Source: an uncultured Chloroflexales bacterium
GTDB lineage: Bacteria; Chloroflexota; Chloroflexia; Chloroflexales; Chloroflexaceae
Direction of reading: 5' to 3'
DNA length: 64,000 bases
NCBI GenBank assembly: GCA_937925925.1
Contig: CALANA010000114.1
Span: forward strand, 185 to 64,184
Translations under genes and position numbers: made by a program
Part shown: positions 241 through 61,746 of the stretch, piece by piece
Layout of the letters: the number at the start of each line of letters is the position of its first letter
Position numbering within the stretch: position 1 is the first letter of the stretch
The notes under the pieces: generated by a model
What the model saw: the letters and a program-made list of their open reading frames with translations, nothing else
Database searches by the model: none
Told to the model about the DNA's origin: nothing

Positions 241-364
241 GCATGACACGGACATGCGAAATGGTCACGTCGAAACCGTATAACTTGTGTTATTGACAGG
301 GCGTACAATAAATACCAGGCCCCGGGTGCGACGCGGGACGCGGTACCCGACCTGGTCTACGTTG

Positions 365-6984: not shown

Positions 6985-7052
6985 GCGGTAACAAAAAAAT
7001 CATCTCTTCCGTATTATTTGTATAACTGGAAATATTTTGCTAGAATGAGTTA

Positions 7053-7290: not shown

Positions 7291-7327
7291 TTATCCACAA
7301 AAGCAGCCGTGCTTGTTGCGCCAGATT

Positions 7328-8272: not shown

Positions 8273-8383
8273 CTAGCAATCCTAAATGAGTTGTGAAGAC
8301 CGGAGTCCAGGATTGACGCTGGTCTTGCTCCGTCCAGGCTGAAGCCGCGACTCCACGGTGACCATGACCATAGGATCGCTATA
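8273..8383. mobile_element. MITE-A copy A2
   Basis: ctagcaatcctaaatgagttgtgaagaccggagtccagg ... ccataggatcgctata. It ends 2 nt from the aminotransferase stop codon. Confidence 0.8.
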
Positions 8384-8385
8384 AG

Positions 8386-9534
8386 TTACTTGCCCAACGC
8401 CTGGCATAGCCGTTCGATACCTGTTGCAAAAAGAGCTGGTTCGGTTAGCGCCGAAAGCATCAGGTGTGTGCCAGGCACATCACCATAAAAATACCCCGGA
8501 TGCACCAGCACCCCCTGTTCCAACATGGACAATACCAGCGCCTCTTCATCGTGGTGGCCGTGTACAGATGGAAACAGATAGTACCCGCCGTCGGGTGGTT
8601 GCATAACGAGTGCCGGGCAGGTCGTGCCATAGGCCAGCGCCAGATCTATATTGGCCCGCACCCGCTCGACCATAGCAGTGACAAAGTCCATGCCCTGCGC
8701 AAACAGCGAAGGCAACAGCGACTGCGCCAGGCTATTCGCCCCCAACAACGTATCGTTAAGCAGTTCCAGCCGCTCACTATAGCCCACCTCTGCCGCTGTA
8801 TTCAGCGCGATCCAGCCCAGCTTGAGGTCGGGTAGCGCAAACAACTTGGAAATGCCGTTGAGCATAAAGACCGGCAGATCGGGATGCAGCGCTCCGACAG
8901 GTGGAGTGTGGGCTGCTCGGTAGGTAAAGGGCGCAAATACCTCATCACAGATCAGCGGCAGGCCCAGCGTGGACAGCGCGGGCAATGGGGCCTGGATGAT
9001 TGCACCGGTCGGGTTGTGCGGCGACACGATCAGCACGGCTCGTGAGCGTGAGTCGGCTTGCGCCAGCAAACTCGCACCATCGATCTGCCAACCTCGCGCC
9101 TCGTCCAGTTCGTAGATCCGCAGTTCGAGCTGGCGTAGTTCGGCCAGGTACTCGAACAGGGGATAGGTGACATTCGGTGCCAGCAGGTTATCACCTGGAT
9201 CGGCCAGTAGACTGAAGAGTAAGAGATAGGCTTCACTGGTACTGGCGGTGATGAAGATTGCATCGGATGGCAATGCCAGTGGCGGTACACGCTGCGCATA
9301 GTAATCCGCGATAGCAGCGCGGGCAGCCGGGTTGCCGCGTGGATCAGGGGCATAACGTCGAGTGGCCCAGTAGGTAGCGCTGGCCGCGTGCAGTATCTCC
9401 GGCGGAAAGAGCAAGCTCTGCCAGGTCGGGTTACTGCTGGTCAGGTCGATATAGCCCGCTCCGGCAGCGACACGACGGCGTGCCAGTTCAATCGCGTTTG
9501 GGTGCAGATCAAGATGGGCAAAGCAGCCAGGCAT
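8386..9534 (-). CDS. Pyridoxal-phosphate-dependent aminotransferase (class I/II)
   Basis: 382 aa. NPTG motif. PLP-lysine context NGISKLFALPDLKLGW. Confidence 0.85.
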   Translation of the reverse strand: MPGCFAHLDLHPNAIELARRRVAAGAGYIDLTSSNPTWQSLLFPPEILHAASATYWATRRYAPDPRGNPAARAAIADYYAQRVPPLALPSDAIFITASTSEAYLLLFSLLADPGDNLLAPNVTYPLFEYLAELRQLELRIYELDEARGWQIDGASLLAQADSRSRAVLIVSPHNPTGAIIQAPLPALSTLGLPLICDEVFAPFTYRAAHTPPVGALHPDLPVFMLNGISKLFALPDLKLGWIALNTAAEVGYSERLELLNDTLLGANSLAQSLLPSLFAQGMDFVTAMVERVRANIDLALAYGTTCPALVMQPPDGGYYLFPSVHGHHDEEALVLSMLEQGVLVHPGYFYGDVPGTHLMLSALTEPALFATGIERLCQALGK

Positions 9535-9823: not shown

Positions 9824-10120
9824 GTCAGTGAACACGTCATGGTGCGCCTGGGAGGGTGGGCGTCCCCCTGGGAGGGTGGGCATCCCGCCCTCTGCACCTG
9901 GGCGGGCGGGCGTCTCGCCCTCTGCGCCTGGGGGAGGGCGTTCCGCCGCCAGGGAGGGAGGGTGTCTCGCCCTCTGCGGCAGGGAGGGAAGGCGTCTCGC
10001 CCTCTGCGGCAGGGAGGGAAGGCGTCCGCCAGGGAGGGCGGGCGTCTCGCCCTCTGCGGCAGGGAGGGAAGGCGTCCGCCAGGGAGGGCGGGCAGCGTGC
10101 CCTTGAGGGTGAACAGGTAC
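9824..10120. repeat. GC-rich D-type element D4 with internal degenerate tandem repeats
   Basis: gtcagtgaacacgtcatggtgcgcctggg ... reiterated gcgtctcgccctctgcggcagggagggaag units ... gggtgaacaggtac. It is flanked by similar about 16-bp direct repeats (ctgcattatagaggca at 9787 and ctgctataatagaggca at 10146). Confidence 0.75.
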
Positions 10121-11934: not shown

Positions 11935-12969
11935 ATGAAAACCGATATACCGCTCAAACGACTGACCCACTTGCGACCGGCCGATCTGTTGCTGCTGTTA
12001 GGTACACCTGAGGCTGAGGTTCTGAGTGTGGATACCTTACAATTGCCATCCAGTGCCACGAGTCTGGATACAGTGTTGCGACTGCGCCAACCGGATGGCA
12101 CCGAGTATTTGCATGTGATCGAATGGCAGGGGTATTACGACTTGCTCTTTCTCTGGCGTGTCCTCGGCTATCTCGCCTGGCTGGGGCAGAACCAGCCGGA
12201 ACGCCCGATCCTGGTGACATTAATTTATTTGAAACCCGATGATGATGTCGGTAACACCCTCACACAGCACCTGGCAGGACAACCCGGATGGACTGTCACC
12301 TTGCCCTGCATTCGTCTATGGCAAGAAGATGCGGCGTCCGCGCTCGCCAGTGGTCGTCCTGGATTAGCCGCACTCTGCCCATTGATGCACGGCGCGACCG
12401 ATAGCATGGTTGAACAGGCCGCCTCCTTGATTATCGATCAGGTTGCCCCACCTGTACAGAACGAATTGTTGGCGGCACTGGGCGTATTTTCCGCATCATT
12501 GATGGAAGTCACACGCTTTATGCGGCTCGTAACAAAGGAGCGACTTATGGCAACCGATCTCATTTCATATCTCTTAGAAGAAGAACGTGCAGAATGGGAA
12601 CAGGAAAAGGCCTCTCTCGAACAGGAAAAGGCCACCCTCGAACAGGAGCGACTCATAGCAACCGATCTTTTAGAAGAAGAACGTGCAGAATGGGAACAGC
12701 AAAAGGCCACTCTCGAACAGGAAAAGGCCACACTCGAACAAGAACTTGCAACTCAGAGCGTTTCACTTCAGGATGCGCTGGTGCGTCAGACATTGCAGCA
12801 AGGGGTAGAAGATGTTTTGATAGCGCGGTTTCCGCATGTTCCCATCACGGTCGTCAGGGATATTCGCCAGATTACGGATCTTACGCAGTTGCAACATCTG
12901 CTGGGAGCACTCGCTCAGGCACCCGATATGCAGAGCGCATTGCAACTGCTACGCGTGCAATCCAACTAA
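11935..12969 (+). CDS. PD-(D/E)XK (Rpn/YhgA-like) putative nuclease with coiled-coil repeat and DUF4351-like C-terminus
   Basis: N-terminal D...IEWQ pattern resembling PD-(D/E)XK. Internal duplicated EERAEWEQ(E/Q)KA(S/T)LEQEKATLEQE block. C-terminal helical tail. Family call is tentative. Confidence 0.5.
   Translation: MKTDIPLKRLTHLRPADLLLLLGTPEAEVLSVDTLQLPSSATSLDTVLRLRQPDGTEYLHVIEWQGYYDLLFLWRVLGYLAWLGQNQPERPILVTLIYLKPDDDVGNTLTQHLAGQPGWTVTLPCIRLWQEDAASALASGRPGLAALCPLMHGATDSMVEQAASLIIDQVAPPVQNELLAALGVFSASLMEVTRFMRLVTKERLMATDLISYLLEEERAEWEQEKASLEQEKATLEQERLIATDLLEEERAEWEQQKATLEQEKATLEQELATQSVSLQDALVRQTLQQGVEDVLIARFPHVPITVVRDIRQITDLTQLQHLLGALAQAPDMQSALQLLRVQSN
12547..12745 (+). repeat. In-frame imperfect tandem duplication (about 96-108 bp unit) inside the CDS
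   Basis: gcaaccgatct...ttagaagaagaacgtgcagaatgggaacag...ctcgaacaggaaaaggcca occurs twice. Confidence 0.8.
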
Positions 12970-12971
12970 GA

Positions 12972-13084
12972 TATAGCACTCCTCAACCAATTGTGCGGAA
13001 CCGAAGTCCAGGCTTTCGCCTGGACGGAGCAAGCCCCAGGCGAAAGCCTGGACTCTCATTTACGATTGGTACAGGCTTGCTATA
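12972..13084. mobile_element. MITE-A copy A3
   Basis: tatagcactcc...gaagtccaggctttcgcctggac...gattggtacaggcttgctata. TA on both flanks. It starts 3 nt after the upstream stop codon. Confidence 0.8.
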
Positions 13085-13198
13085 ACAGACATATGTGGTG
13101 ACTTGACGTCTATGCTCTTCTCGGCTATGGTAGTGTGGAAGAGTAGAGGTGAGCGGCCGCAAGCAAAAAAAAGCTACGGGCGACCGCGTAACTCCTGT
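13085..13198. mobile_element. MITE-B copy B4 (degenerate)
   Basis: acagacatatgtggtg ... gcgaccgcgtaactcctgt. Confidence 0.45.
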
Positions 13199-24422: not shown

Positions 24423-24530
24423 GTAAACGTTCCCTTTTGGGAGAACGGGCAGCCTGCCCGCGCATGCGTGACGGAGAGAGGGACGCCCGCGCTTCCAGGC
24501 GTGCGCGTTCCGCCGAGTCTGAACGGCTAC
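24423..24530. mobile_element. D-type element D1
   Basis: gtaaacgttcccttttgggagaacgggcagcctgcccgcgcatgcg...gggacgcccgcgcttccaggcg...ctgaacggctac. Confidence 0.7.
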
Positions 24531-24549
24531 CGAGATGCTCGTTCAGACC

Positions 24550-24906
24550 CTAATAGTCAGGCGCAAGCAAGCGCAACTGTGGCACTTGCATCGGTATGGT
24601 ACCTGATTGGGCAACGATAAACCTCTCCATCTCGTCATACAATACCAGGAGATCAACTCCCATATAAGGACTGGGCAACCCGGCTAACCTGGCGCGACTC
24701 TTGGCCCAGTTACGGTACATTCCACGCTGGTTGCTCTGTTGCCATTTTACCAGAGCCGCCGCTGTTTGAATAATGCCCTTAAAAAACCGGGCCTCATCTG
24801 CATCCGTTGCTGCTCGCCAGCATTGTTCCCACTGCTCATGGGCATGCCAGAAATGGCCGGCATTGAACAGGCGAATACCTTCCAGGTATGCTTCAGGATA
24901 GGGCAT
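24550..24906 (-). CDS. DUF309 domain protein
   Basis: FNAGHFWHAHEQWEQCW signature. Confidence 0.8.
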   Translation of the reverse strand: MPYPEAYLEGIRLFNAGHFWHAHEQWEQCWRAATDADEARFFKGIIQTAAALVKWQQSNQRGMYRNWAKSRARLAGLPSPYMGVDLLVLYDEMERFIVAQSGTIPMQVPQLRLLAPDY

Positions 24907-25000
24907 AGCTCAGAAATACTGCACCGTGATAGAGAACAAAGTCACCCCTGATACACTTGATTATCAGGGGTGACTGATTCGACGCATCTCACAGCAAAGA

Positions 25001-25444
25001 CTAATGACTACCGCAGGTAGAACATCCACCGCTACTGGCAGGAGCTTCATCAGCACCACTATCTTCATTCGTACGGAACGAATGCCCGCAACCACACCCG
25101 GAAACGGCGTTGGGGTTATCAATCTTAAACCCGCCGCCCATCAGACTATCTACATAGTCCACTGATGCACCTTGCAAATAGCGAGCGCTAACCGGATCGA
25201 CCAGAATGCGCAAATCACTGCTGAAAAAATCGCTATCGCCCTCGCGCACTTCATCATCAAAGGTCATCCCATATTGTAAGCCTGAACAACCACCACCCGA
25301 AACAAACACCCGGAGCGCGTAACCATCCAGTTCTTTCTCGCGCATCAGTGCCGTCAAGTGTTCAGCCGCTGGCTGCGTTACTGTCAACACGGGTTGCGTG
25401 GTTACAGGTTGCACACGTGCAGTTCCCTGCTCAACAACTGTCAT
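25001..25444 (-). CDS. Iron-sulfur cluster insertion/assembly protein (IscA/HesB/ErpA family) with Cys-containing C-terminal extension
   Basis: VFVSGGGCSGLQYGMTFD and FKIDNPNAVSGCGCGHSF motifs. Confidence 0.9.
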   Translation of the reverse strand: MTVVEQGTARVQPVTTQPVLTVTQPAAEHLTALMREKELDGYALRVFVSGGGCSGLQYGMTFDDEVREGDSDFFSSDLRILVDPVSARYLQGASVDYVDSLMGGGFKIDNPNAVSGCGCGHSFRTNEDSGADEAPASSGGCSTCGSH

Positions 25445-25574
25445 TTATCCATCCTCCTTCAATATGAGCATCTTCTCGACACTGAAACGTGCATAGCAAA
25501 GTATACCAGATGTCAGAACGAAACGCTAGTGTTTTCTTTTGTAACGAGATGAGACATGCTTCTACCTGTTACTA

Positions 25575-25716
25575 CCAGGACGTACGCAGTGAGAGCGCCC
25601 GGCCCGGTAAACGGTCGGGCGACACATGGACTGACGCGCCGTCCGCGCCAGCGTCCGGTGTGCGCTGCCCTTGCCCGACGCGTCTGCGTCCGAGTACAGG
25701 CGACCGCGTATGCCAC
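25575..25716. mobile_element. MITE-B copy B7
   Basis: ccaggacgtacgcagtg...cgcccggcccggtaaacggtcgggc...caggcgaccgcgtatgcc. Confidence 0.7.
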
Positions 25717-25817
25717 ATTTGTGGTCGTATACCTGGCCCATTCCCTGGCCGAAGACACGATCAAGCACAGAAAAACGCCGGTCACTGCGCACGCTCTATC
25801 AATGATTGTAGGACACG

Positions 25818-25999
25818 GTAATTGTTCACTCTTCTCTTGGGAGCGCGGGCACGCTGCCCGTGCATGCGTGCTGGCGGGTGGGACGCCCGCGCTCCCAGGC
25901 GACTGTGCATGCTGGCGGGCGTCCCGCCCGCGCTCCCAGGCGACTGTGCGTGTTGGCGGGCGAGACGCCCGCGCTCCCAGGCGCACCATGAACGCTGAC
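25818..25999. mobile_element. D-type element D2 with about 44-bp internal triplication
   Basis: gtaattgttcactcttctcttgggagcgcgggcacgctgcccgtgcatgcg. The cgcccgcgctcccaggcg unit occurs three times. It ends in catgaacgctgac. Confidence 0.75.
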
Positions 26000-29650: not shown

Positions 29651-29764
29651 GGTACGCATTCCCTTTTCTCCTGAGAGCGCAGGCATCTTGCCCGTGCATG
29701 CGCGACGGAGGGTGGGACGCCCGCGCTCCCAGGCGTGCGCGTTCCCCCGCGTGGGAACAGGCAC
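29651..29764. mobile_element. D-type element D3
   Basis: ggtacgcattcccttttctcctgagagcgcaggcatcttgcccgtgcatgcg...gggacgcccgcgctcccaggcgtgcgcgttcc...gggaacaggcac. Colinear with D1. Confidence 0.7.
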
Positions 29765-37274: not shown

Positions 37275-37302
37275 GAGAGACGTTGCGTGCAACGTCTCTC
37301 CT
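37275..37302. repeat. Solo palindromic core related to the MITE-C/G GTTGCATGCAAC module
   Basis: ggagagacgttgcgtgcaacgtctctcc, 11 nt downstream of the deacetylase stop codon. No T-tract follows. Confidence 0.7.
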
Positions 37303-42623: not shown

Positions 42624-42664
42624 TCAAGGTGTCCTGATGACTTCAATCAGGTATTATCCAACTA

Positions 42665-42810
42665 CTAGTACTCCACCGAGACGAAGTCTTGGTGGGGGGA
42701 TGAGGGGTTTCACAGGTTCTCTTTCTGGTGCGGCGCGGCTTTGTCGCGCCCCCTCCCCCCCCGGCCCCCCTCGACATCTCTGTCCAGGGGAAGTCTCGTT
42801 GGAGTACTAG
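42665..42810. mobile_element. MITE-G copy G1
   Basis: ctagtactccaccgagacgaagtct ... ccaggggaagtctcgttggagtactag. Confidence 0.8.
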
Positions 42811-42934
42811 AATCAAAGAAGTGAATGCGCATATATGACATCCGTTGTAAGGGGATATCACTATGCATGTTTGCCCTCTATTGTACAAGACATGCGGGCA
42901 TTTTGTGTACACTGCGGTGTTCGATATTGGCTCC

Positions 42935-47961: not shown

Positions 47962-48273
47962 ACAGCAATCCTACATGAGTTGTGAAAAAACTGGAGTCCA
48001 GGCTTTAGCCTGGGTCTCGTCCCGTCGAGGCTTGCGCCTGGGTCTTGCCCCTTCCAGGTTCAAGCCTGGACGCCGGTGCTGCCAGGTTCAAGTCTGGACG
48101 CCGGTGCTGCCAGGTTCAAGTCTGGACGCCGGTGCTGCCAGGTTCAAGTCTGGGCGCCGGTGCTGCCAGGTTCAAGTCTGGACGCCGGTGCTGCCAGGTT
48201 CAAGTCTGGACGCCGGTGCTGCCAGGTTCAAGCCTGGACGCCGATGCTACACAACAGATTTAGGATCGCTATA
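47962..48273. mobile_element. MITE-A copy A8 expanded by an internal tandem array
   Basis: acagcaatcctacatgagttgtgaaaaaactggagtccagg ... tttaggatcgctata. Confidence 0.8.
48054..48249. repeat. 28-bp tandem repeat x7 (ccaggttcaagtctggacgccggtgctg)
   Basis: Copies start at 48054, 48082, 48110, 48138, 48166, 48194 and 48222. They are head-to-tail with no spacers. Confidence 0.95.
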
Positions 48274-48290
48274 CAGTACTCCATCAGCAC

Positions 48291-51775: not shown

Positions 51776-51982
51776 ATGGCTGAACCGATGCAGATTGTGA
51801 TTGGTGATATCGTACAGATGCGCAAACCGCACGCATGCGGTGGCGATACCTGGCGTGTGGTACGGATCGGAGCCGAGATCGGCTTACGCTGCCAGACCTG
51901 TCAGCGCAAAGTGCTGTTGCCGCGCTCGGAGTTTGAGCGACGGGTGCGGCGTTTTGTGCAGCGGGGAACAGCCACCATATAA
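51776..51982 (+). CDS. DUF951 (YyzM-like) small protein
   Basis: [47 protein letters not shown] matches the DUF951 pattern. Confidence 0.75.
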
Positions 51983-51999
51983 TCCTCAATGAGGTAGAG

Positions 52000-52908
52000 A
52001 TGACGATTCCAGATTTTCAGTCCATCATGCTGCCCTTACTCAAGTTTGCTAGTGATAGACAAGAACACTCGCTGCGAGAGACTATAGAGGCCCTTGCCGA
52101 CGAGTTCAATCTCACTGACGAGGAACGCAGCGAGTTGTTGCCCAGCGGACAGCAGGCGATCTTTTCCAACCGTGTGGGATGGGCGCGTACCTATTTGAAA
52201 AAAGCCGGAATGTTGGAGACTACACGGCGTGGCTATTATCGAATCACAGAACGTGGTCAACAGACTCTCATTCAAAATCCCCCCAGGATCGATATAGTTT
52301 TTCTCAGGCAGTTCCCCGGATTCGTCGAGTTCCAGAGAACCACAAGGATCAGATCGGACGAGGCCGAAGATGAGGAAAGCAATGAAACGCAAACGCCCGA
52401 AGAGGTGATCGAAGCAGCCTATCAAAAACTACGTCAAGGATTGGCCGTTGAACTTTTGCAGATGATCAACGATCGGTCGCCAGCATTTTTCGAGCGGCTG
52501 GTGATCGATTTGTTGGTCAGGATGGGGTATGGTGGCACGCGCAAGGATGCTGGAGAGGCCATTGGCAGATCCGGCGATGGTGGTATCGATGGCATCATCA
52601 AGGAAGATCGTTTAGGGCTTGATATCGTTTATGTTCAGGCCAGGAGATGGGATAATGTGGTGGGTCGTCCTGAGATACAGAAATTTGCCGGTGCATTGCA
52701 GGGACAGCGTGCTCGAAAAGGCATTTTCATCACAACGTCTACCTTCTCGAAAGATGCACTGGACTACGTTGCTCGGATAGATAGTAAGATCGTCCTGATT
52801 GATGGCAATATGCTGGCACAGTTGATGATTGATCACAACGTTGGGGTATCTTTGGTGGCTTCATACGAATTGAGACGTATTGACTCAGACTATTTCACAG
52901 AGGAGTAA
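52000..52908 (+). CDS. mrr: Mrr-family type IV restriction endonuclease
   Basis: Mrr_N winged-helix N-terminus. Catalytic region GDGGIDGIIKEDRLGLDIVYVQARRW. Confidence 0.9.
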   Translation: MTIPDFQSIMLPLLKFASDRQEHSLRETIEALADEFNLTDEERSELLPSGQQAIFSNRVGWARTYLKKAGMLETTRRGYYRITERGQQTLIQNPPRIDIVFLRQFPGFVEFQRTTRIRSDEAEDEESNETQTPEEVIEAAYQKLRQGLAVELLQMINDRSPAFFERLVIDLLVRMGYGGTRKDAGEAIGRSGDGGIDGIIKEDRLGLDIVYVQARRWDNVVGRPEIQKFAGALQGQRARKGIFITTSTFSKDALDYVARIDSKIVLIDGNMLAQLMIDHNVGVSLVASYELRRIDSDYFTEE

Positions 52909-53143
52909 TACCGTTTCGACGTGACCCTTCCGCATGTTCTTGCCATTCGTCTTCCAACAAGACTGCGTCGCGGCGGGGGTGCGGGGGCCGGAGGCCCCCG
53001 CCCATGTGGGTATGTCGGAGGAGGGGCGTTGCATGCAACGCCGCTACGCGCCCCGTGCAATCTCTTTCCAGGGGAAGTCTCGTGGTCATATGAGCAAGCG
53101 TAAGACGGATCACAGGATGCGGAAGGGCGACGTCAAATTGGTA
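52909..53143. mobile_element. MITE-C copy C2, 3-bp TSD taa (the left copy is the mrr stop codon)
   Basis: taccgtttcgacgtgacccttccgcatg ... gatgcggaagggcgacgtcaaattggta. taa at 52906-52908 and 53144-53146. Confidence 0.9.
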
Positions 53144-53220
53144 TAAGGTGGCCTAAAACGTGCTTCCGGCCAACCGCGCTTTGCGCGGCGGCTAATGCAA
53201 CCCGTTAGGCGGCAATGTCA

Positions 53221-53336
53221 GTGTGTAAGGAGCAGGATGAATAAACGTGATTTCTTGGCAACAGCGAAATCGCTGCTGCTTCTTCGTGGAAGGAGTGTGT
53301 AAGAAGCAGGATGCATAAACGTGATTTCTTGAAAAT
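53221..53336 (+). repeat. Tandem duplication (74-bp period) of the SD/start/Tat-signal region, creating a 21-codon uORF (53237-53302)
   Basis: gtgtgtaaggagcaggatgaataaacgtgatttcttg at 53221 and gtgtgtaagaagcaggatgcataaacgtgatttcttg at 53295. The uORF encodes MNKRDFLATAKSLLLLRGRSV. Confidence 0.85.
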
Positions 53337-54681
53337 GCTGGCTCTGGTGCTGCTGGGTAGCACTACCAGCGCATGTGATAGCGGGCGTGATCAGGGCGGT
53401 ATGCCACGAAGTCAGCGAGTTCTGGTCATTGGTGCTGGGATGGCGGGGTTGGCCGCTGCGAGAGAGCTTAGGCGTGCAGGACAGCAAGTGCTTGTATTGG
53501 AAGCGCGAGACCGGATTGGTGGACGAACCTGGACGAGCAGCAAATGGCCTGATTTGCCCCTTGATTTAGGGGCATCATGGATACAGGGGGTTGAAGGCAA
53601 TCCAATCACAGACCTGGCTAACCAGTTGGGAGCGAAGCGCCTGGTCACAAGCTTCGAGCGCACCGTTGTTTACAACACCAACGGTCAGGTACTCTCGAAG
53701 GCAGAAGAAGCGCAGCTAGATGGCATCAGGAAACAGATGTTCAACACCTTGCATGAAGCACAAGACGCGAATGCAGATACTTCTGTCCGCCAGGCGGTCG
53801 CTGTGCTGGAGCAAAAATTTGCAGGTAATCGAGCGGCTCTTCGTTTCCTGAATTTTTGCTTGTCGAGCGAGATCGAACATGAATATGCGGGCAGTGCCAG
53901 TCGCCTTTCAGCGCACTGGTACGACAGCGGAGAACAATTCGACGGTGATGATGTTCTGTTTGCGCAGGGATACACAGTCATTACCGAGTATTTGGCGCGG
54001 GATGTTGACGTTCAGCTTTCTCAGGTCGTCAAGGAAATCCAGTGGCAGGAGCCAGAGGTCAGAGTCCGCACCACCAACAACGAGTTCGTCGCTGACCGCG
54101 TTGTCGTTACGCTGCCACTTGGCGTTTTGCAGCACAATGACGTTCGATTCGTTCCGCAATTGCCTGTAGCGAAGCGCAATGCCATCAACAAACTGGGTAT
54201 GGGGGTGTTGAACAAGTGCTTCCTTCGGTTTCCGCAAGCATTCTGGCCGGAAGACATGGATTGGCTTGGGTATGTCCCAGAACAACATGGTGAATGGACT
54301 GAGTGGGTCAGCTTCAAGCGGGCAACGCAATTGCCCATTCTGCTTGGATTCAATGCTGCCGACCGCGGGCGTGAAATTGAAGGGTGGTTAGACGAGCAAG
54401 TCGTCGCAGATGCTTTGGTAACGCTGAAGACGATCTTTGGAACCAACATACCGAACCCGATCGACTACCAGATAACACGCTGGGATGCGGATCCCTTTGC
54501 GCGTGGCTCTTACTCCTACAATGCCCTGAACTCAACACCCGCAATGCGTACTGATCTGGCAAGACCTCTTGCTGGACGGTTGTTCTTTGCCGGTGAAGCA
54601 ACCAGTAAGGACTATTTTGGAACCGCCCATGGTGCGTACTTGAGTGGCTTGCAGGCAGCAAGCGATGTCCTTTCGCCGTGA
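53311..54681 (+). CDS. Flavin-containing amine oxidase (polyamine/monoamine oxidase-like), Tat/lipoprotein-type signal
   Basis: MHKRDFLKMLALVLLGSTTSAC signal. VLVIGAGMAGLAAARELRRAG...VLEARDRIGGR dinucleotide fold. Confidence 0.85.
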   Translation: MHKRDFLKMLALVLLGSTTSACDSGRDQGGMPRSQRVLVIGAGMAGLAAARELRRAGQQVLVLEARDRIGGRTWTSSKWPDLPLDLGASWIQGVEGNPITDLANQLGAKRLVTSFERTVVYNTNGQVLSKAEEAQLDGIRKQMFNTLHEAQDANADTSVRQAVAVLEQKFAGNRAALRFLNFCLSSEIEHEYAGSASRLSAHWYDSGEQFDGDDVLFAQGYTVITEYLARDVDVQLSQVVKEIQWQEPEVRVRTTNNEFVADRVVVTLPLGVLQHNDVRFVPQLPVAKRNAINKLGMGVLNKCFLRFPQAFWPEDMDWLGYVPEQHGEWTEWVSFKRATQLPILLGFNAADRGREIEGWLDEQVVADALVTLKTIFGTNIPNPIDYQITRWDADPFARGSYSYNALNSTPAMRTDLARPLAGRLFFAGEATSKDYFGTAHGAYLSGLQAASDVLSP

Positions 54682-54689
54682 TCTGTTGT

Positions 54690-54960
54690 CGCCCAACCAT
54701 GCGCTGCATCTGACGCCGCTCCGCGTACGGCTGAACCCAACCGTTATGCGGCGGGTGAGACAAAAGACCGTTGAAACAGAGATGGCACACCGTAAGCGAA
54801 CGGAGGCCAGGAAGCAAGCGTCGGATTCGACGGTCGGCGGGGTGCAGGGGGTTGGTATCCATATCTCTTTATCTTTCGACTCGCTTGCAACCTGGAACCA
54901 GTTGACGCTGGAACTGCCACCCAGGAGCATATTTATCCAGATGTGGTAGCACCCGGTTGC
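54690..54960 (-). pseudogene. Possible degraded C-terminal fragment of a DDE (rve-type) transposase
   Basis: Minus-strand frames give ...GCKRVER(stop) followed by ...CFNGLLSHPPHNGWVQPYAERR. These loosely resemble the NGKVERF and YN..RPH..G..P.E motifs. The match is weak and made by eye only. Confidence 0.2.
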
Positions 54961-55025: not shown

Positions 55026-56393
55026 ATGACGTATTGCAGGTGGGTCTACAGCCTGATCGGGTTAGGCTTGCTGTTGCTCATCCATATCAGTAATAGCACG
55101 GTGAAGACAACCCATGCCCAACCATCTGGCCCGATTTATATCGTGGAGGTACAGGGGACGATTACGAACGTTACCATTAACTACCTGGAGCGGGCGCTAC
55201 GCCAGGCGGAGGCCAGTAATGCCACGGCTTTGATCATTCAGTTGAACAATCAGGGGTCGGTGTTACGGGCGATACGTCCCTTTGCTGCGCGCATTGCCGC
55301 TGCCGAGATACCGGTGGTGGTCTATGTTGCTCCCGCACAGACCCATGCGGGTGCTGCCGGTGCTTTCTTCCTCAGCGCTGCGCATGTGTCCGCCATGGCT
55401 CCCAATACGAGCTTTGGTACCCCGACTCCCCTGGCGGAAATAGACGATTTGTTGACCGAACAGACACAAGAACTTTTGCTGGATAGTGTCGAGCAACAGT
55501 TACACACCTGGAATGCCGATCGAGGGCGCAACACCGATTGGGTGAATCGCGCTGTGCGCTCCGGAGTGTGGCTGACGAATGAGCAGGCGATTGCCACCAA
55601 CCCGCCTGTTGTAGACATCATTGCCCGCGACACGGACGAACTGTTGACCCTGCTTGAGGGGCGGACGATCCAGCCGGAGAATCGAGCCGAGGTGCAACTA
55701 CAAACCCTGGGCCGTGAATTAACACCGATCCGCCCGACGCTCTGGGAGCAGTTGCGTTTGCTGCTGGCTGATCCGACTGTTGCCTTTCTGTTGCTGGTCA
55801 TGGGGGCCGTGGCGATCTATGCCGAGCTGGCAAATCCAGGCACCATGATTTTTGCCGGGATCGGCATCGTGCTGATATTGAGTGCGCTGGTCGGTATGCT
55901 TTCCTTACCCGTGCGCTGGATCAGTGTTGCCGGTTTGTTTCTGGCGTTCATGCTGGTGGCAATGGATCTGTATGTACCCTCCCAGGGTGCCCTAACAGTG
56001 GTTGGCATTGTGGTGTTGATTGTGAGTGCGTTGACCCTGGTTGATACCGTTCAGGCGCCGAATGCGTTTGTGGCGCTCTGGGCGATTATGCTGGTGGTGT
56101 TGATAGCGCTGGTTGTGGTTGTGGCAAGTATCTGGCTTATTCTGCGCACTCGTACTCAACCGATTGCCACGGGGCAGGAGGGCATGCTTGGACGACTGGC
56201 AGAAGTGCGTCAGCGCCTTGAACCAGAAGGTATGGTATTTATCGAGGGAGCGCTCTGGCGTGCGATTAGTGAAGATGGAGAAGTGGAACCGGGCGAATGG
56301 GTGCGCGTGATGGCGATCTATGACTTGCGGCTGGTGGTGCGCCGCCTTGATGCTGACGATGATGCTGCTCATAGACAAGCATTCCAATCCTGA
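55026..56393 (+). CDS. NfeD family membrane-bound ClpP-class serine protease
   Basis: N-terminal ClpP-like domain (IYIVEVQGTI...), multi-TM middle region and a C-terminal NfeD OB-fold. Adjacent to an SPFH gene. Confidence 0.85.
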   Translation: MTYCRWVYSLIGLGLLLLIHISNSTVKTTHAQPSGPIYIVEVQGTITNVTINYLERALRQAEASNATALIIQLNNQGSVLRAIRPFAARIAAAEIPVVVYVAPAQTHAGAAGAFFLSAAHVSAMAPNTSFGTPTPLAEIDDLLTEQTQELLLDSVEQQLHTWNADRGRNTDWVNRAVRSGVWLTNEQAIATNPPVVDIIARDTDELLTLLEGRTIQPENRAEVQLQTLGRELTPIRPTLWEQLRLLLADPTVAFLLLVMGAVAIYAELANPGTMIFAGIGIVLILSALVGMLSLPVRWISVAGLFLAFMLVAMDLYVPSQGALTVVGIVVLIVSALTLVDTVQAPNAFVALWAIMLVVLIALVVVVASIWLILRTRTQPIATGQEGMLGRLAEVRQRLEPEGMVFIEGALWRAISEDGEVEPGEWVRVMAIYDLRLVVRRLDADDDAAHRQAFQS

Positions 56394-56396
56394 ATG

Positions 56397-56573
56397 ACAT
56401 GAGTTACGCGGTTGCTCGAACCAGACGTCTTTTTCGCCTTCGGCAGAGCGGTACTTTTGCTGTTTTTCGCTCCCCATTTTCGCCGTAGGCGAAAATGGGG
56501 AGCGAAAAAAGAGGTTCTTTGATGCTACCGCAGGCGAAAAGGCGAGCTGATCATACCACTGCGTATGTCCTGT
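56397..56573. mobile_element. MITE-B copy B12 with 5-bp TSD gaatg, inserted in the nfeD-stomatin junction
   Basis: acatgagttacgcggttgc ... perfect 22-bp stem hairpin 56463-56509 ... ccactgcgtatgtcctgt. gaatg at 56392-56396 and 56574-56578. Confidence 0.9.
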
Positions 56574-56599
56574 GAATGATAGAAAAGGAGAAGATAACC

Positions 56600-57439
56600 G
56601 TGAACGGTGGTGTTTTTCTATTTGCCTGCCTGGGTGTACTGGCCTTTATCGTCTTGATGGTCGTGTTGTCGGCGATCAAGATTATCCCCGAATATGAGCG
56701 GGGCGTGATTTTTCGCTTAGGGCGTCTGATGGGTGCGCGTGGCCCGGGTCTCTTCTTTGTGATCCCTATGTTTGAGCGCATGATCCGCGTGGATCAGCGT
56801 GTGATCACCATGGATGTGCCCGTGCAAGAGGTGATCACCCTGGATAACGTGACGATCAAGGTCAATGCCGTTCTCTACTTTCAAGTCATGAACCCCAACT
56901 GGGCCGTTACCAAGGTCATGGACTACATTCGAGCCACGATGCAAATCGCACAGACGACGTTGCGGAGTGTGGTGGGTCAGGTTGAACTGGATGACTTGCT
57001 GTCCCAGCGTGACAAAATCAATCAAAAATTACAACAAATCATTGATGAACAGACCGAACCCTGGGGGATCAAAGTCACCATTGTTGAGATTAAGGATGTT
57101 GAATTGCCCTCGACCATGCAACGGGCAATGGCAAAACAGGCTGAGGCAGAACGTGAGAAGCGCGCCAAGATCATCCATGCCGAAGGTGAACTCCAGGCGT
57201 CGAAGGCACTGGCAGCAGCGGCAGAGGTGATAGCACGTGAACCGGTCACCTTACAACTTCGCTATCTCCAGACTCTGAGTGAGATTTCAATAGAGAAGAA
57301 TAGTACGATTATTTTCCCGCTACCGGTTGATCTGATCAGGCCGTTTATGGATCACATTCAGGGTAGTTCGGACAACGGCAGTACGATTGCTGCTCCACCC
57401 TCGGTTACGGAACGGCATACGACACAACGGTTAGAATAA
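56600..57439 (+). CDS. SPFH/band 7 (stomatin/slipin) protein
   Basis: [15 protein letters not shown]... is a classic stomatin N-terminus. GTG start chosen 9 nt after the AAGGAG SD. The ATG at 56576 is created by the MITE target-site duplication. Confidence 0.9.
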
Positions 57440-57698
57440 TATCGTTTCGACTTGAACATTCCGCCTCCCACGAGACTGTGTCGCGGCGGGGGGTATGGGG
57501 GTGGGCCGCCCATGTTCCTTTTCTGGTGCGGAGCGGTGAAGCCGCGCCCTCCCTGCGGGGGGGCGGCGTAGGGGTGTTGCATGCAACGCATCCAACGCAT
57601 CTATCCCCCGCGACATCGCTTTCCACGGACAGGCGCGTTGGCGTATGCGCAAGCGTCAGACTGACCAACGGATGCGGAAGGCCGCAGTCAAACTGGTA
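57440..57698. mobile_element. MITE-C copy C3 (the left flank taa is the stomatin stop codon; the right flank is tga)
   Basis: tatcgtttcgacttgaacattccgc ... gatgcggaaggccgcagtcaaactggta. taa at 57437-57439 and tga at 57699-57701. Confidence 0.85.
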
Positions 57699-57939
57699 TG
57701 AGATCCAGATCCTGAAGCGCTCTTTAGAACACGAGTCAGAGCCTGCTAGCTCCCGGCATATGAGTCGTTATCAAACGCTATGCGTGGTCAGCCGCATGCA
57801 CAGGTTTTAACTCGCGGCGTGTGAGGTGTTGGCGATAGGCGATGCAAGAAGGAAGAGAGGTGGTATTGTGTGTCGAGAGGCACACTAGAGAGTGGTGAGC
57901 AGGTTTCGAGGATTGGTGATCCCTCGCTTCAATGCTATG

Positions 57940-60338: not shown

Positions 60339-60595
60339 TATAGTAATCCTATCTCAGTTGTGAAGACTGGAGTCCAGGCAAAAGCCTGGTCTCGCCCTAC
60401 ACCGAGACTTCGTCTCGTTAAGGGCGCAGGGGCCGCAGGCTCCCACACATGTTCTCTTTCTAAAGGAGATTTCGGCGGAGGGGCGTTGCATGCAAGATCC
60501 CTCCGTCCCTCGCAATCTCTTTCCAGGGGAAGTCTCGTTGGAGTACTCGTTCTGTCCAGGCTTTCACCTGGACTCCTTGCAATAGGCTTGCTATA
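60339..60595. mobile_element. MITE-A copy A10 carrying a nested MITE-G
   Basis: tatagtaatcctatctcagttgtgaagactggagtccaggcaaaagcctgg [insert] tgtccaggctttcacctggactccttgcaataggcttgctata. Confidence 0.8.
60396..60549. mobile_element. MITE-G copy G2 nested inside MITE-A10
   Basis: cctacaccgagacttcgtctcg ... ggcggaggggcgttgcatgcaag ... ccaggggaagtctcgttggagtact. Confidence 0.7.
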
Positions 60596-60636: not shown

Positions 60637-61509
60637 ATGTTTCGACGTTCTACGGATTTGCGTTCACTGCTGATAGGCCTGCTCAGTATCTATCTCTTTG
60701 TGTATCCGTGGGGCATACTCCTGATAGCGCTGGATCGTGTCCCGGCCTGGGGTGTTGGGATGGGGGCGATTCTGTTGATCCTCCAGGGGACGATGATGGG
60801 CCTGTGGCTAACGGCTCGCTATCGCTGGCGCGGCACTCTAGCTGCGCTCCTGATCTTGCTCATCTCCTGGTGGGCTGAACATCTGGGTGAGACCAGTGGC
60901 TTTCCCTTCGGTCAGTATACCTATACCGAGGTTCTTGCACCAAAAATTATACATGTGGTGCCACTGGCGATACCCTTTGCCTGGCTCCTTGTCATTCCGG
61001 CAGCAGTAGGTATTACCGATCGGCTGATGGCCTTCGACCCTGGTACCTCTGAGACCTCGCTGGGCAATGTTGTTCTTACAACGCTGGCAGCCGCATCGTT
61101 TGCGACACTGCTTGATGTTACGATTGAGCCGGTTGCTGTCCATGTCAATCGGTACTGGATCTGGCACGATAGTGGTGGCTATTACGGCGTGCCGCTTTCT
61201 AATTTTGCGGCCTGGTGGACGATCAGCGCCCTCCTGGTCTGGATTTTGGTATGGTTGCGCCAGAATGCGCATACATCGGTCTGGCCACCGTTAACGCCAG
61301 TGGTGCGGATGGAATGGCTACCGCAGTTACTGTATCTGCTCAATCTGATCATGTTTGTGGTGATTAACTTGAGCAACCGCCATCTGGCCGCTGCCAGCAT
61401 CGGGTTGCTGGTGCTGGTCTATCTGGCCTTTGATCGGCTAGAACCAGGCATGGTACGCTGGGTGATGGGCGGGATCGAACGCAGTGATACCCGGCAGGGA
61501 CGGGCATAA
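60637..61509 (+). CDS. Carotenoid biosynthesis membrane protein (Caroten_synth/CruF-like hydratase family)
   Basis: Polytopic membrane protein. The EHLGETSGFPFGQYTYTEVLAPKI...VPLAIPFAW motif resembles the family signature. Confidence 0.65.
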   Translation: MFRRSTDLRSLLIGLLSIYLFVYPWGILLIALDRVPAWGVGMGAILLILQGTMMGLWLTARYRWRGTLAALLILLISWWAEHLGETSGFPFGQYTYTEVLAPKIIHVVPLAIPFAWLLVIPAAVGITDRLMAFDPGTSETSLGNVVLTTLAAASFATLLDVTIEPVAVHVNRYWIWHDSGGYYGVPLSNFAAWWTISALLVWILVWLRQNAHTSVWPPLTPVVRMEWLPQLLYLLNLIMFVVINLSNRHLAAASIGLLVLVYLAFDRLEPGMVRWVMGGIERSDTRQGRA

Positions 61510-61517
61510 GCAGGTTA

Positions 61518-61640
61518 TACCGTTTCGATGTGACCCGTCCGCATGTTCGTACCATTCGTCCTCCACCGAGCCTGCGTCGCGGTGGGGTATGGGGCCTGCG
61601 CTCTCCGCCCATGTGGGAATTTCGGCGGAGGGGCGTGGCC
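61518..61640. mobile_element. MITE-C copy C4, truncated (left half only)
   Basis: taccgtttcgatgtgacccgtccgcatgttcgtaccattcgtc... preceded by tta. Homology is lost after ggcggaggggcgt. Confidence 0.7.
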
Positions 61641-61746
61641 CCAAACCCTCGGCCGGAGGTTAACGTGATGCACATACGGGTAGTGCCTGGTACCTACCCC
61701 TCCAGCGTTTCCATCGAGGGCAATCCCGGCCGCAGTGTACGTTCAA

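Follow-up and report, generated by a model that had tools for sequence, protein, structure and literature searches.

PIF/Harbinger elements and Tourist MITEs, found in eukaryotes, duplicate the 3-bp target TWA (TAA or TTA), and their small non-coding derivatives accumulate near genes. A 3-bp TTA/TAA repeat, together with short terminal inverted repeats, is also a feature of the IS427 and IS1031 groups of the IS5 family and of the MITEs derived from them, and termini of the form GAG.../GG... are typical of that family (IS1031, IS427 and ISL2 groups). IS1237 of Leifsonia xyli, a member of the IS5 family, has a TTA/TAA direct repeat and starts with GAGGTGG (PMC2516522). The pneumococcal BOX, RUP and SPRITE repeats are overrepresented downstream of coding sequences, where weaker selection was invoked by the authors, and 36 genes take their stop codon from BOX with no clear truncation (PMC3049150). 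Finally, the Correia elements (CREE or NEMIS) of Neisseria are MITEs of 100-160 bp whose inverted repeats give a long hairpin, and they are co-transcribed with the genes next to them and cut by RNase III (PMC2229807).

We studied a stretch of DNA of 64 kb, called the window hereafter, whose G+C content is about 54%. The nearest matches of its PspA are proteins attributed to Oscillochloris, Chloroflexus and Chloroflexales, and the host is therefore a Chloroflexales-like bacterium. The window contains five copies, fragments counted, of a repeat that we call MITE-C. This repeat duplicates TWA as the PIF/Harbinger and Tourist elements do, but it resides in a bacterium and not in a eukaryote, it has no sequence relation to them, and the PIF/Harbinger transposase with its Myb-like partner was not observed for it. 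It shares the 3-bp TTA/TAA repeat and short terminal inverted repeats with the IS5 relatives, but it ends in 5'-TACC, unlike the start of IS1237. Like BOX, RUP and SPRITE, it is a small structured repeat lying just past coding sequences; those repeats have other sequences and a modular build, and BOX provides a stop codon from within the repeat whereas in MITE-C the stop is kept by the target duplication. Correia elements, by contrast, duplicate TA, and they have effects on RNA that were shown by experiment. MITE-C is a MITE: it is short, it bears terminal inverted repeats, its target-site duplication is defined by filled and empty sites, its copies are dispersed and they differ among relatives. 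It constitutes a new, previously undescribed family of a familiar type. Two of its copies sit on stop codons, and probably these sites are a by-product of where the insertions of a TWA-duplicating MITE survive.

Copies and structure of MITE-C

The original prediction had recognized four copies, C1 to C4, and when we re-read the window sequence all their coordinates proved correct, as did the reported flanks (TTA/TTA for C1, TAA/TAA for C2, TAA/TGA for C3 and a TTA preceding C4). C2 (52909-53143, plus strand) is a full-length copy of 235 bp that starts with TACCGTTTCGACGTGACCCTTCCGCATG and ends with ...GATGCGGAAGGGCGACGTCAAATTGGTA, its inverted repeats being of the TACCGTTTCGACGTGACCCTTCCGCATG / CATCCGGAAGGGCGACGTCAAATTGGTA type. 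The Mrr gene (ORF 52000-52908) has as its stop codon the left TAA of the C2 duplication (52906-52908, plus strand), and the right TAA lies at 53144-53146 on the same strand. C1 (7053-7290, minus strand, hence inverted relative to C2) is also full length, with 238 bp; its neighbours are rsmG (GidB domain) on one side and pspA on the other, and it is flanked by unstranded TTA triplets at 7050-7052 and 7291-7293. C3 (57440-57698, plus strand) measures 259 bp, with an 18-nt deletion in its left arm; the left TAA of its duplication (57437-57439, plus strand) is the stop codon of a Band_7/SPFH (stomatin-like) gene (ORF 56576-57439), and its right side (57699-57701, plus strand) reads TGA in the window and TAA in the closest relative. 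Only the left half of C4 is present (61518 to about 61639, plus strand), preceded by a TTA (61515-61517, plus strand) that lies 5 nt past the TAA stop codon of a Caroten_synth gene (61507-61509).

A profile built from eight MITE-C ends and run on the window recovered a fifth copy, F0, a left-end fragment of 38 nt (243-280, minus strand) that abuts a TAA at 281-283 and that another family's MITE has truncated; the profile found no further copies in the window beyond C1-C4 and F0. C2, C3 and C4 have the same orientation relative to their upstream gene. C2 is also found at the same place in two contigs assembled from short reads (Logan), L009 and L010, both of which break within its right end.

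MITE-C is about 235-260 bp long, too short to encode a transposase, and the short ORFs called across its copies overlap one another on the two strands. Its terminal inverted repeats, of the form TACC...GGTA, span 27-30 nt, TACCGTTTCGACGTGACCCTTCCGCAT pairing with its partner at the opposite end. An alignment of all copies showed that the inverted repeats are borne by outer arms of about 45-50 nt, between which lies a core of GC-rich hairpin modules, including GGAGGGGCGTTGCATGCAACGCCCCTCC. A relative of the inner core stands free at 42655-42822 (plus strand), with its own inverted ends AGTACTCCACCGAGAC... / ...GTCTCGTTGGAGTACT and CTAG flanks, and the inner core is also nested in a MITE of a different family at 60385-60560 (plus strand). 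The core thus occurs both alone and within another MITE family, which makes MITE-C a composite or nested element.

The core hairpin around TTGCATGCAA (7156, 53029 and 60486) has a diverged copy at 37283 in which the two arms have changed in step, so that pairing is kept (GAGAGACG...CGTCTCTC versus GGAGGGGCG...CGCCCCTCC). Palindromic repeats commonly keep their pairing in this way, and selection need not be involved. Other repeats are present in the window. At 47995-48276, 28-nt units (CTGCCAGGTTCAAGTCTGGACGCCGGTG), at least eight in number, follow one another in tandem; they apparently derive from a hairpin, CCAGG...CCTGG, that is also present in one MITE family. GC-rich direct-repeat families, made of GGGAGGG...GCCCTC units and of 41-nt and 87-nt units, occupy 9850-10093, 24438-25987 and 29672-29758, in long gene-free stretches.

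Searches for relatives of the family returned little. At gathering scores Rfam gave no match, and even with E-values up to 1 no hit fell within the elements; no plasmid relatives of MITE-C were found. The end pattern TACCNNTTYGNNGTNNCCNNTCCGCAT gave seven hits in genome contigs and four in metagenome contigs, all by chance, the source genome lying outside these collections, and a looser end pattern gave only chance matches in viral contigs. No autonomous element with MITE-C ends was found in the window or in about 190 kb of relatives' loci, and the gaps at 28.6-33.2 kb and 24.0-25.0 kb held no ORF longer than about 120 aa beyond the called genes. The 3-bp duplication is the one feature that suggests a kinship with IS5/PIF-Harbinger elements, and this kinship is best taken as a hypothesis. 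The original prediction had proposed an integration of that type: the TWA duplication fits it, while the partner transposase was not found in the gaps or in the 190 kb, and the termini speak against it, TACC replacing the GAG.../GG... of IS5 elements, a weak criterion that draws on one cited element and on the usual form of such termini.

Filled and empty sites in relatives

The same close relative provided two contigs, L008 (a contig of GCA_053495515.1) and L011, and more distant relatives provided L012-L020. The PspA protein encoded in L008 is identical to that of the window, and the rsmG-pspA spacer is 241 bp shorter there. Indeed, the C1 site is empty, with one TTA, in L008 (GAGTTAGTCACA) and in the outgroups L026 and L027 (both GAGTTAGCCACA), whereas the window reads GAGTTA, the 238-bp element and then TTATCCACA, with TTA on both sides. 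The site being empty in L026 and L027 as well, C1 is a recent insertion into a site whose ancestral state was empty. The copies of MITE-C differ from one another by 23-27%, and yet C1 is recent: the family is thus old, diverse and still active. The base just right of the right TTA of C1 (7294) is T in the window and G in all three empty sites. We considered an excision footprint at C1, but compared with the outgroups only this one window base, beside the duplication, differs (G to T), and so no footprint need be assumed.

C3 and C4 are common only to the window and its closest relative, while C1 is specific to the window. In L011, C3 occupies the same place and is flanked by TAA on both sides; the TGA to its right in the window results from a later A-to-G change. 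Both copies are absent from L012-L020, which have the same TAA stop codon or a single TTA instead: the Band-7 gene of these relatives ends with ...GGAATAA followed by GAT, matching the filled site, and L020 reads GGCATAAGCAGGTTATGAGC at the C4 site, with a single TTA. No MITE-C copy was detected in about 190 kb of DNA from other relatives, L012-L020 included. An empty site was not found for C2, the whole segment carrying Mrr, C2 and the oxidase gene being missing from all relatives examined.

The comparison of filled and empty sites at C1, C3 and C4 thus shows that the 3-bp TAA/TTA (TWA) duplication is real and beyond chance. The original prediction had advanced such a duplication and had suggested inspecting orthologues that lack the insertion: single targets were found at the empty sites of all three copies, and the duplication is borne out by the empty C1 sites and by the TAA/TAA flanks of C3 in L011. 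In addition, the differences in presence and absence among relatives imply that MITE-C was mobile recently. Beyond the truncated end of C4, about 90 nt (61640-61730; L011:16965-17060) are found only in the window and its closest relative, in place of the spacer of L012-L020, and the truncation therefore came with a deletion or a replacement.

The two genes whose stop codons lie in a duplication encode a protein with Pfam matches to Mrr_N and Mrr_cat (ORF 52000-52908) and a Band_7/SPFH protein (ORF 56576-57439). The C-terminus and stop codon of the latter are the same in relatives with and without C3. Mrr is 302 aa long in nearly all of the 120 homologues listed, and in L025, from a Thermoflexales genome, it ends at the same codon, which is TAG there. 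Both proteins are thus unchanged by C3 and C2, respectively. The prediction that two copies have duplicated the stop codon of the gene upstream, with no change to the protein, was therefore upheld, by the ...GGAATAA ends of the relatives without C3 and by the length and end of Mrr.

C2 lies within a segment of 3 kb (about 51967-54952) that holds Mrr, C2, a gene for an amine-oxidase-family flavoprotein and a short ORF; none of the relatives examined has this segment. In the window it takes the place of the last 27 nt or so of the DUF951 gene; in relatives, NfeD directly follows DUF951. The nearest Mrr homologue is found in an unrelated gene context, and the segment looks like an acquired island.

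Folding and a possible role at gene ends

If the duplication leaves the proteins intact, the elements could nevertheless have been kept, or placed, by the host, their long GC-rich hairpin just past the stop codon serving as a terminator, an insulator or a stabiliser of mRNA 3' ends, as proposed for REP, ERIC, Correia and SPRITE. None of the five copies lies more than 82 nt past a stop codon, and the shared orientation of C2, C3 and C4 relative to the upstream gene would suit such a use. Against it, C1 is recent, it has the reverse orientation and the genes on either side of it are co-directional. Moreover, C4 is a truncated remnant, and relatives manage with no element at the corresponding sites.

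We compared the folding of the elements with that of shuffled sequences. C2 (as RNA, z = -4.9) and C1 (as DNA, z = -4.3) fold more stably than shuffles, in keeping with a function, but long inverted repeats should make any element fold strongly, and C3 folds no better than its shuffles (z = -0.8). C3 is the only copy in which a hairpin, GGGTGGGCCGCCC, is followed by a T-tract, ATGTTCCTTTTC (57499-57513); no hairpin directly followed by a T-tract, the form of an intrinsic terminator, was found in C1, C2 or C4.

The two orthologues of C3, in the window and in the closest relative, are identical at 227 of 250 positions. At 4-fold degenerate sites the same pair of genomes has an identity of 0.898 (n=1631), so C3 drifts at the neutral rate. 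Hypermutation inside the elements was considered and rejected, the 4-fold sites being equally diverged (0.898 versus 0.908). In the register chosen by RNAalifold, three base pairs of the C3 orthologues are changed on both sides, which would speak for a conserved structure; however, in the minimum-energy structure of the window copy there are no both-sided changes, 10 one-sided changes and 7 broken pairs. Since the both-sided changes occur in one fold only, the signal depends on the register in which the G-rich and C-rich stems are paired, and compensatory evolution of the C3 hairpins was not retained, the signal being not robust with two sequences.

With these three pairs and the diverged core hairpin that keeps its pairing, the structure of MITE-C may be under some constraint. 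All together, a function at gene ends may exist but draws no support from the present comparison, and we regard the use of the elements by the host as unlikely. The terminator or 3'-stabiliser role suggested by the original prediction is thus not supported here, given a hairpin with a T-tract in C3 only, the unremarkable folding of C3 and its neutral divergence.

Stop codons and the survival of insertions

The original prediction had also held that, stop codons being a rich source of TAA, the elements come to lie exactly at the 3' ends of coding sequences. To obtain a null count, the elements of the window were masked and all TAA/TTA sites outside coding bodies were taken as tolerated sites. 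Among these 285 sites, 19 (6.7%) are TAA stop codons, and against all of them the probability that at least two of five insertions fall on TAA stops is 0.04. However, the 100 nt past stop codons contain only 85 of the 285 (30%), and in this zone stop codons make up 22% of the TWA sites; because all copies are found in such gene 3' flanks, the probability rises to 0.31. The coincidence of C2 and C3 with stop codons stands, whereas an enrichment beyond that given by TWA and survival in 3' flanks is not established: two copies on stops are at most marginally above chance, the copies numbering five and the pattern having been noticed post hoc. The pattern is explained by TWA specificity together with the survival of insertions in the 3' flanks of genes, the explanation also offered for the pneumococcal BOX, RUP and SPRITE repeats.

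The following scenario appears probable. MITE-C would be a non-autonomous cut-and-paste DNA transposon, integrated at TWA by a transposase that is encoded elsewhere in the genome and that would duplicate the three bases. TAA stop codons are TWA sites, and after the duplication one in-frame TAA is left, so that an insertion there should do no harm to the protein, whereas insertions in genes or promoters would be removed by selection. The surviving copies would then gather just past genes, where about one fifth of the TWA sites are stop codons, and two copies out of five on stops would be the outcome expected from this filter. Neither the targeting of stop codons nor a host function would be needed. 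With a sample of five copies, a real preference for stop codons may still exist.

Against a plain TWA target, GAR-TWA-G is found at three of the four sites whose context is known. Read along the upstream gene, these sites are GAG-TTA-G (the empty C1 site), GAG-TAA-G (C2), GAA-TAA-G (C3) and AGG-TTA-T (C4). The transposase could thus recognize a longer target, for example GAR-TWA-G, which resembles many gene ends, and the matches to stop codons would then reflect a sequence preference and not selection. This pattern was itself noticed post hoc, on four sites only, one of which (C4) does not fit, and a longer target appears quite unlikely to us, somewhat more so than a use by the host.

Other MITEs of the window also lie close to stop codons. 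A third family (ends TATAGCA... / ...TGCTATA) has two copies, at 12967-13085 and 8275-8388, each 1-2 nt from a TAA stop: one stop is at 12967-12969 and the other, at 8386-8388, belongs to a gene on the minus strand. Nearness to stops is thus not peculiar to MITE-C. A MITE of yet another family (56398-56572, region 56391-56579; ends CATGAGTTACGCGG... / ...GCGTATGTCCTG) has TGAATGA on both sides, and the first TGA is the stop codon of NfeD. The same spacer in the closest relative (L011:11368-11933) holds three MITEs of this family in tandem, with TGAATGA between each, and the element is also found in the distant relatives L012-L020. For a copy of this family in L026, whose site is empty in the window and in L008, the apparent duplication is ATTG instead. 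Unrelated MITE families at or near stops could be seen as punctuation selected at gene ends (terminators, insulators or 3'-end protectors), the duplication serving as a docking device without cost, but we hold this for very unlikely. The reading in which the flanking TWA is no duplication at all, the insertion being of IS200/IS605-like or REP/RAYT-like type or of the TA-duplicating IS630/Tc1-mariner class, is hardly credible: core hairpins do recur in other repeat contexts of the window, but the long terminal inverted repeats, and TWA on both sides of C1, C2 and C3 (in L011) and only once in empty sites, rule out an insertion of the IS200/IS605 or REP/RAYT type and a junction without duplication, and a TA duplication would give unequal flanks at C1 and C2 where the empty site fits 3 bp.

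With MITE-C taken as a TWA-duplicating MITE whose positions reflect survival, no new mechanism is opened, and a host function at gene ends, if true, would be of more interest. The annotation of genes is helped, as the ORFs called across MITE-C elements are spurious, and the family helps to account for fragmented assemblies such as L009 and L010, which end inside the right end of C2. MITE-C represents a MITE family, recently active in a Chloroflexales-like lineage, whose TWA duplication and boundaries are fixed by empty sites, and it offers a clean case of a TAA-duplicating element that lands on a stop codon and leaves the protein unharmed.
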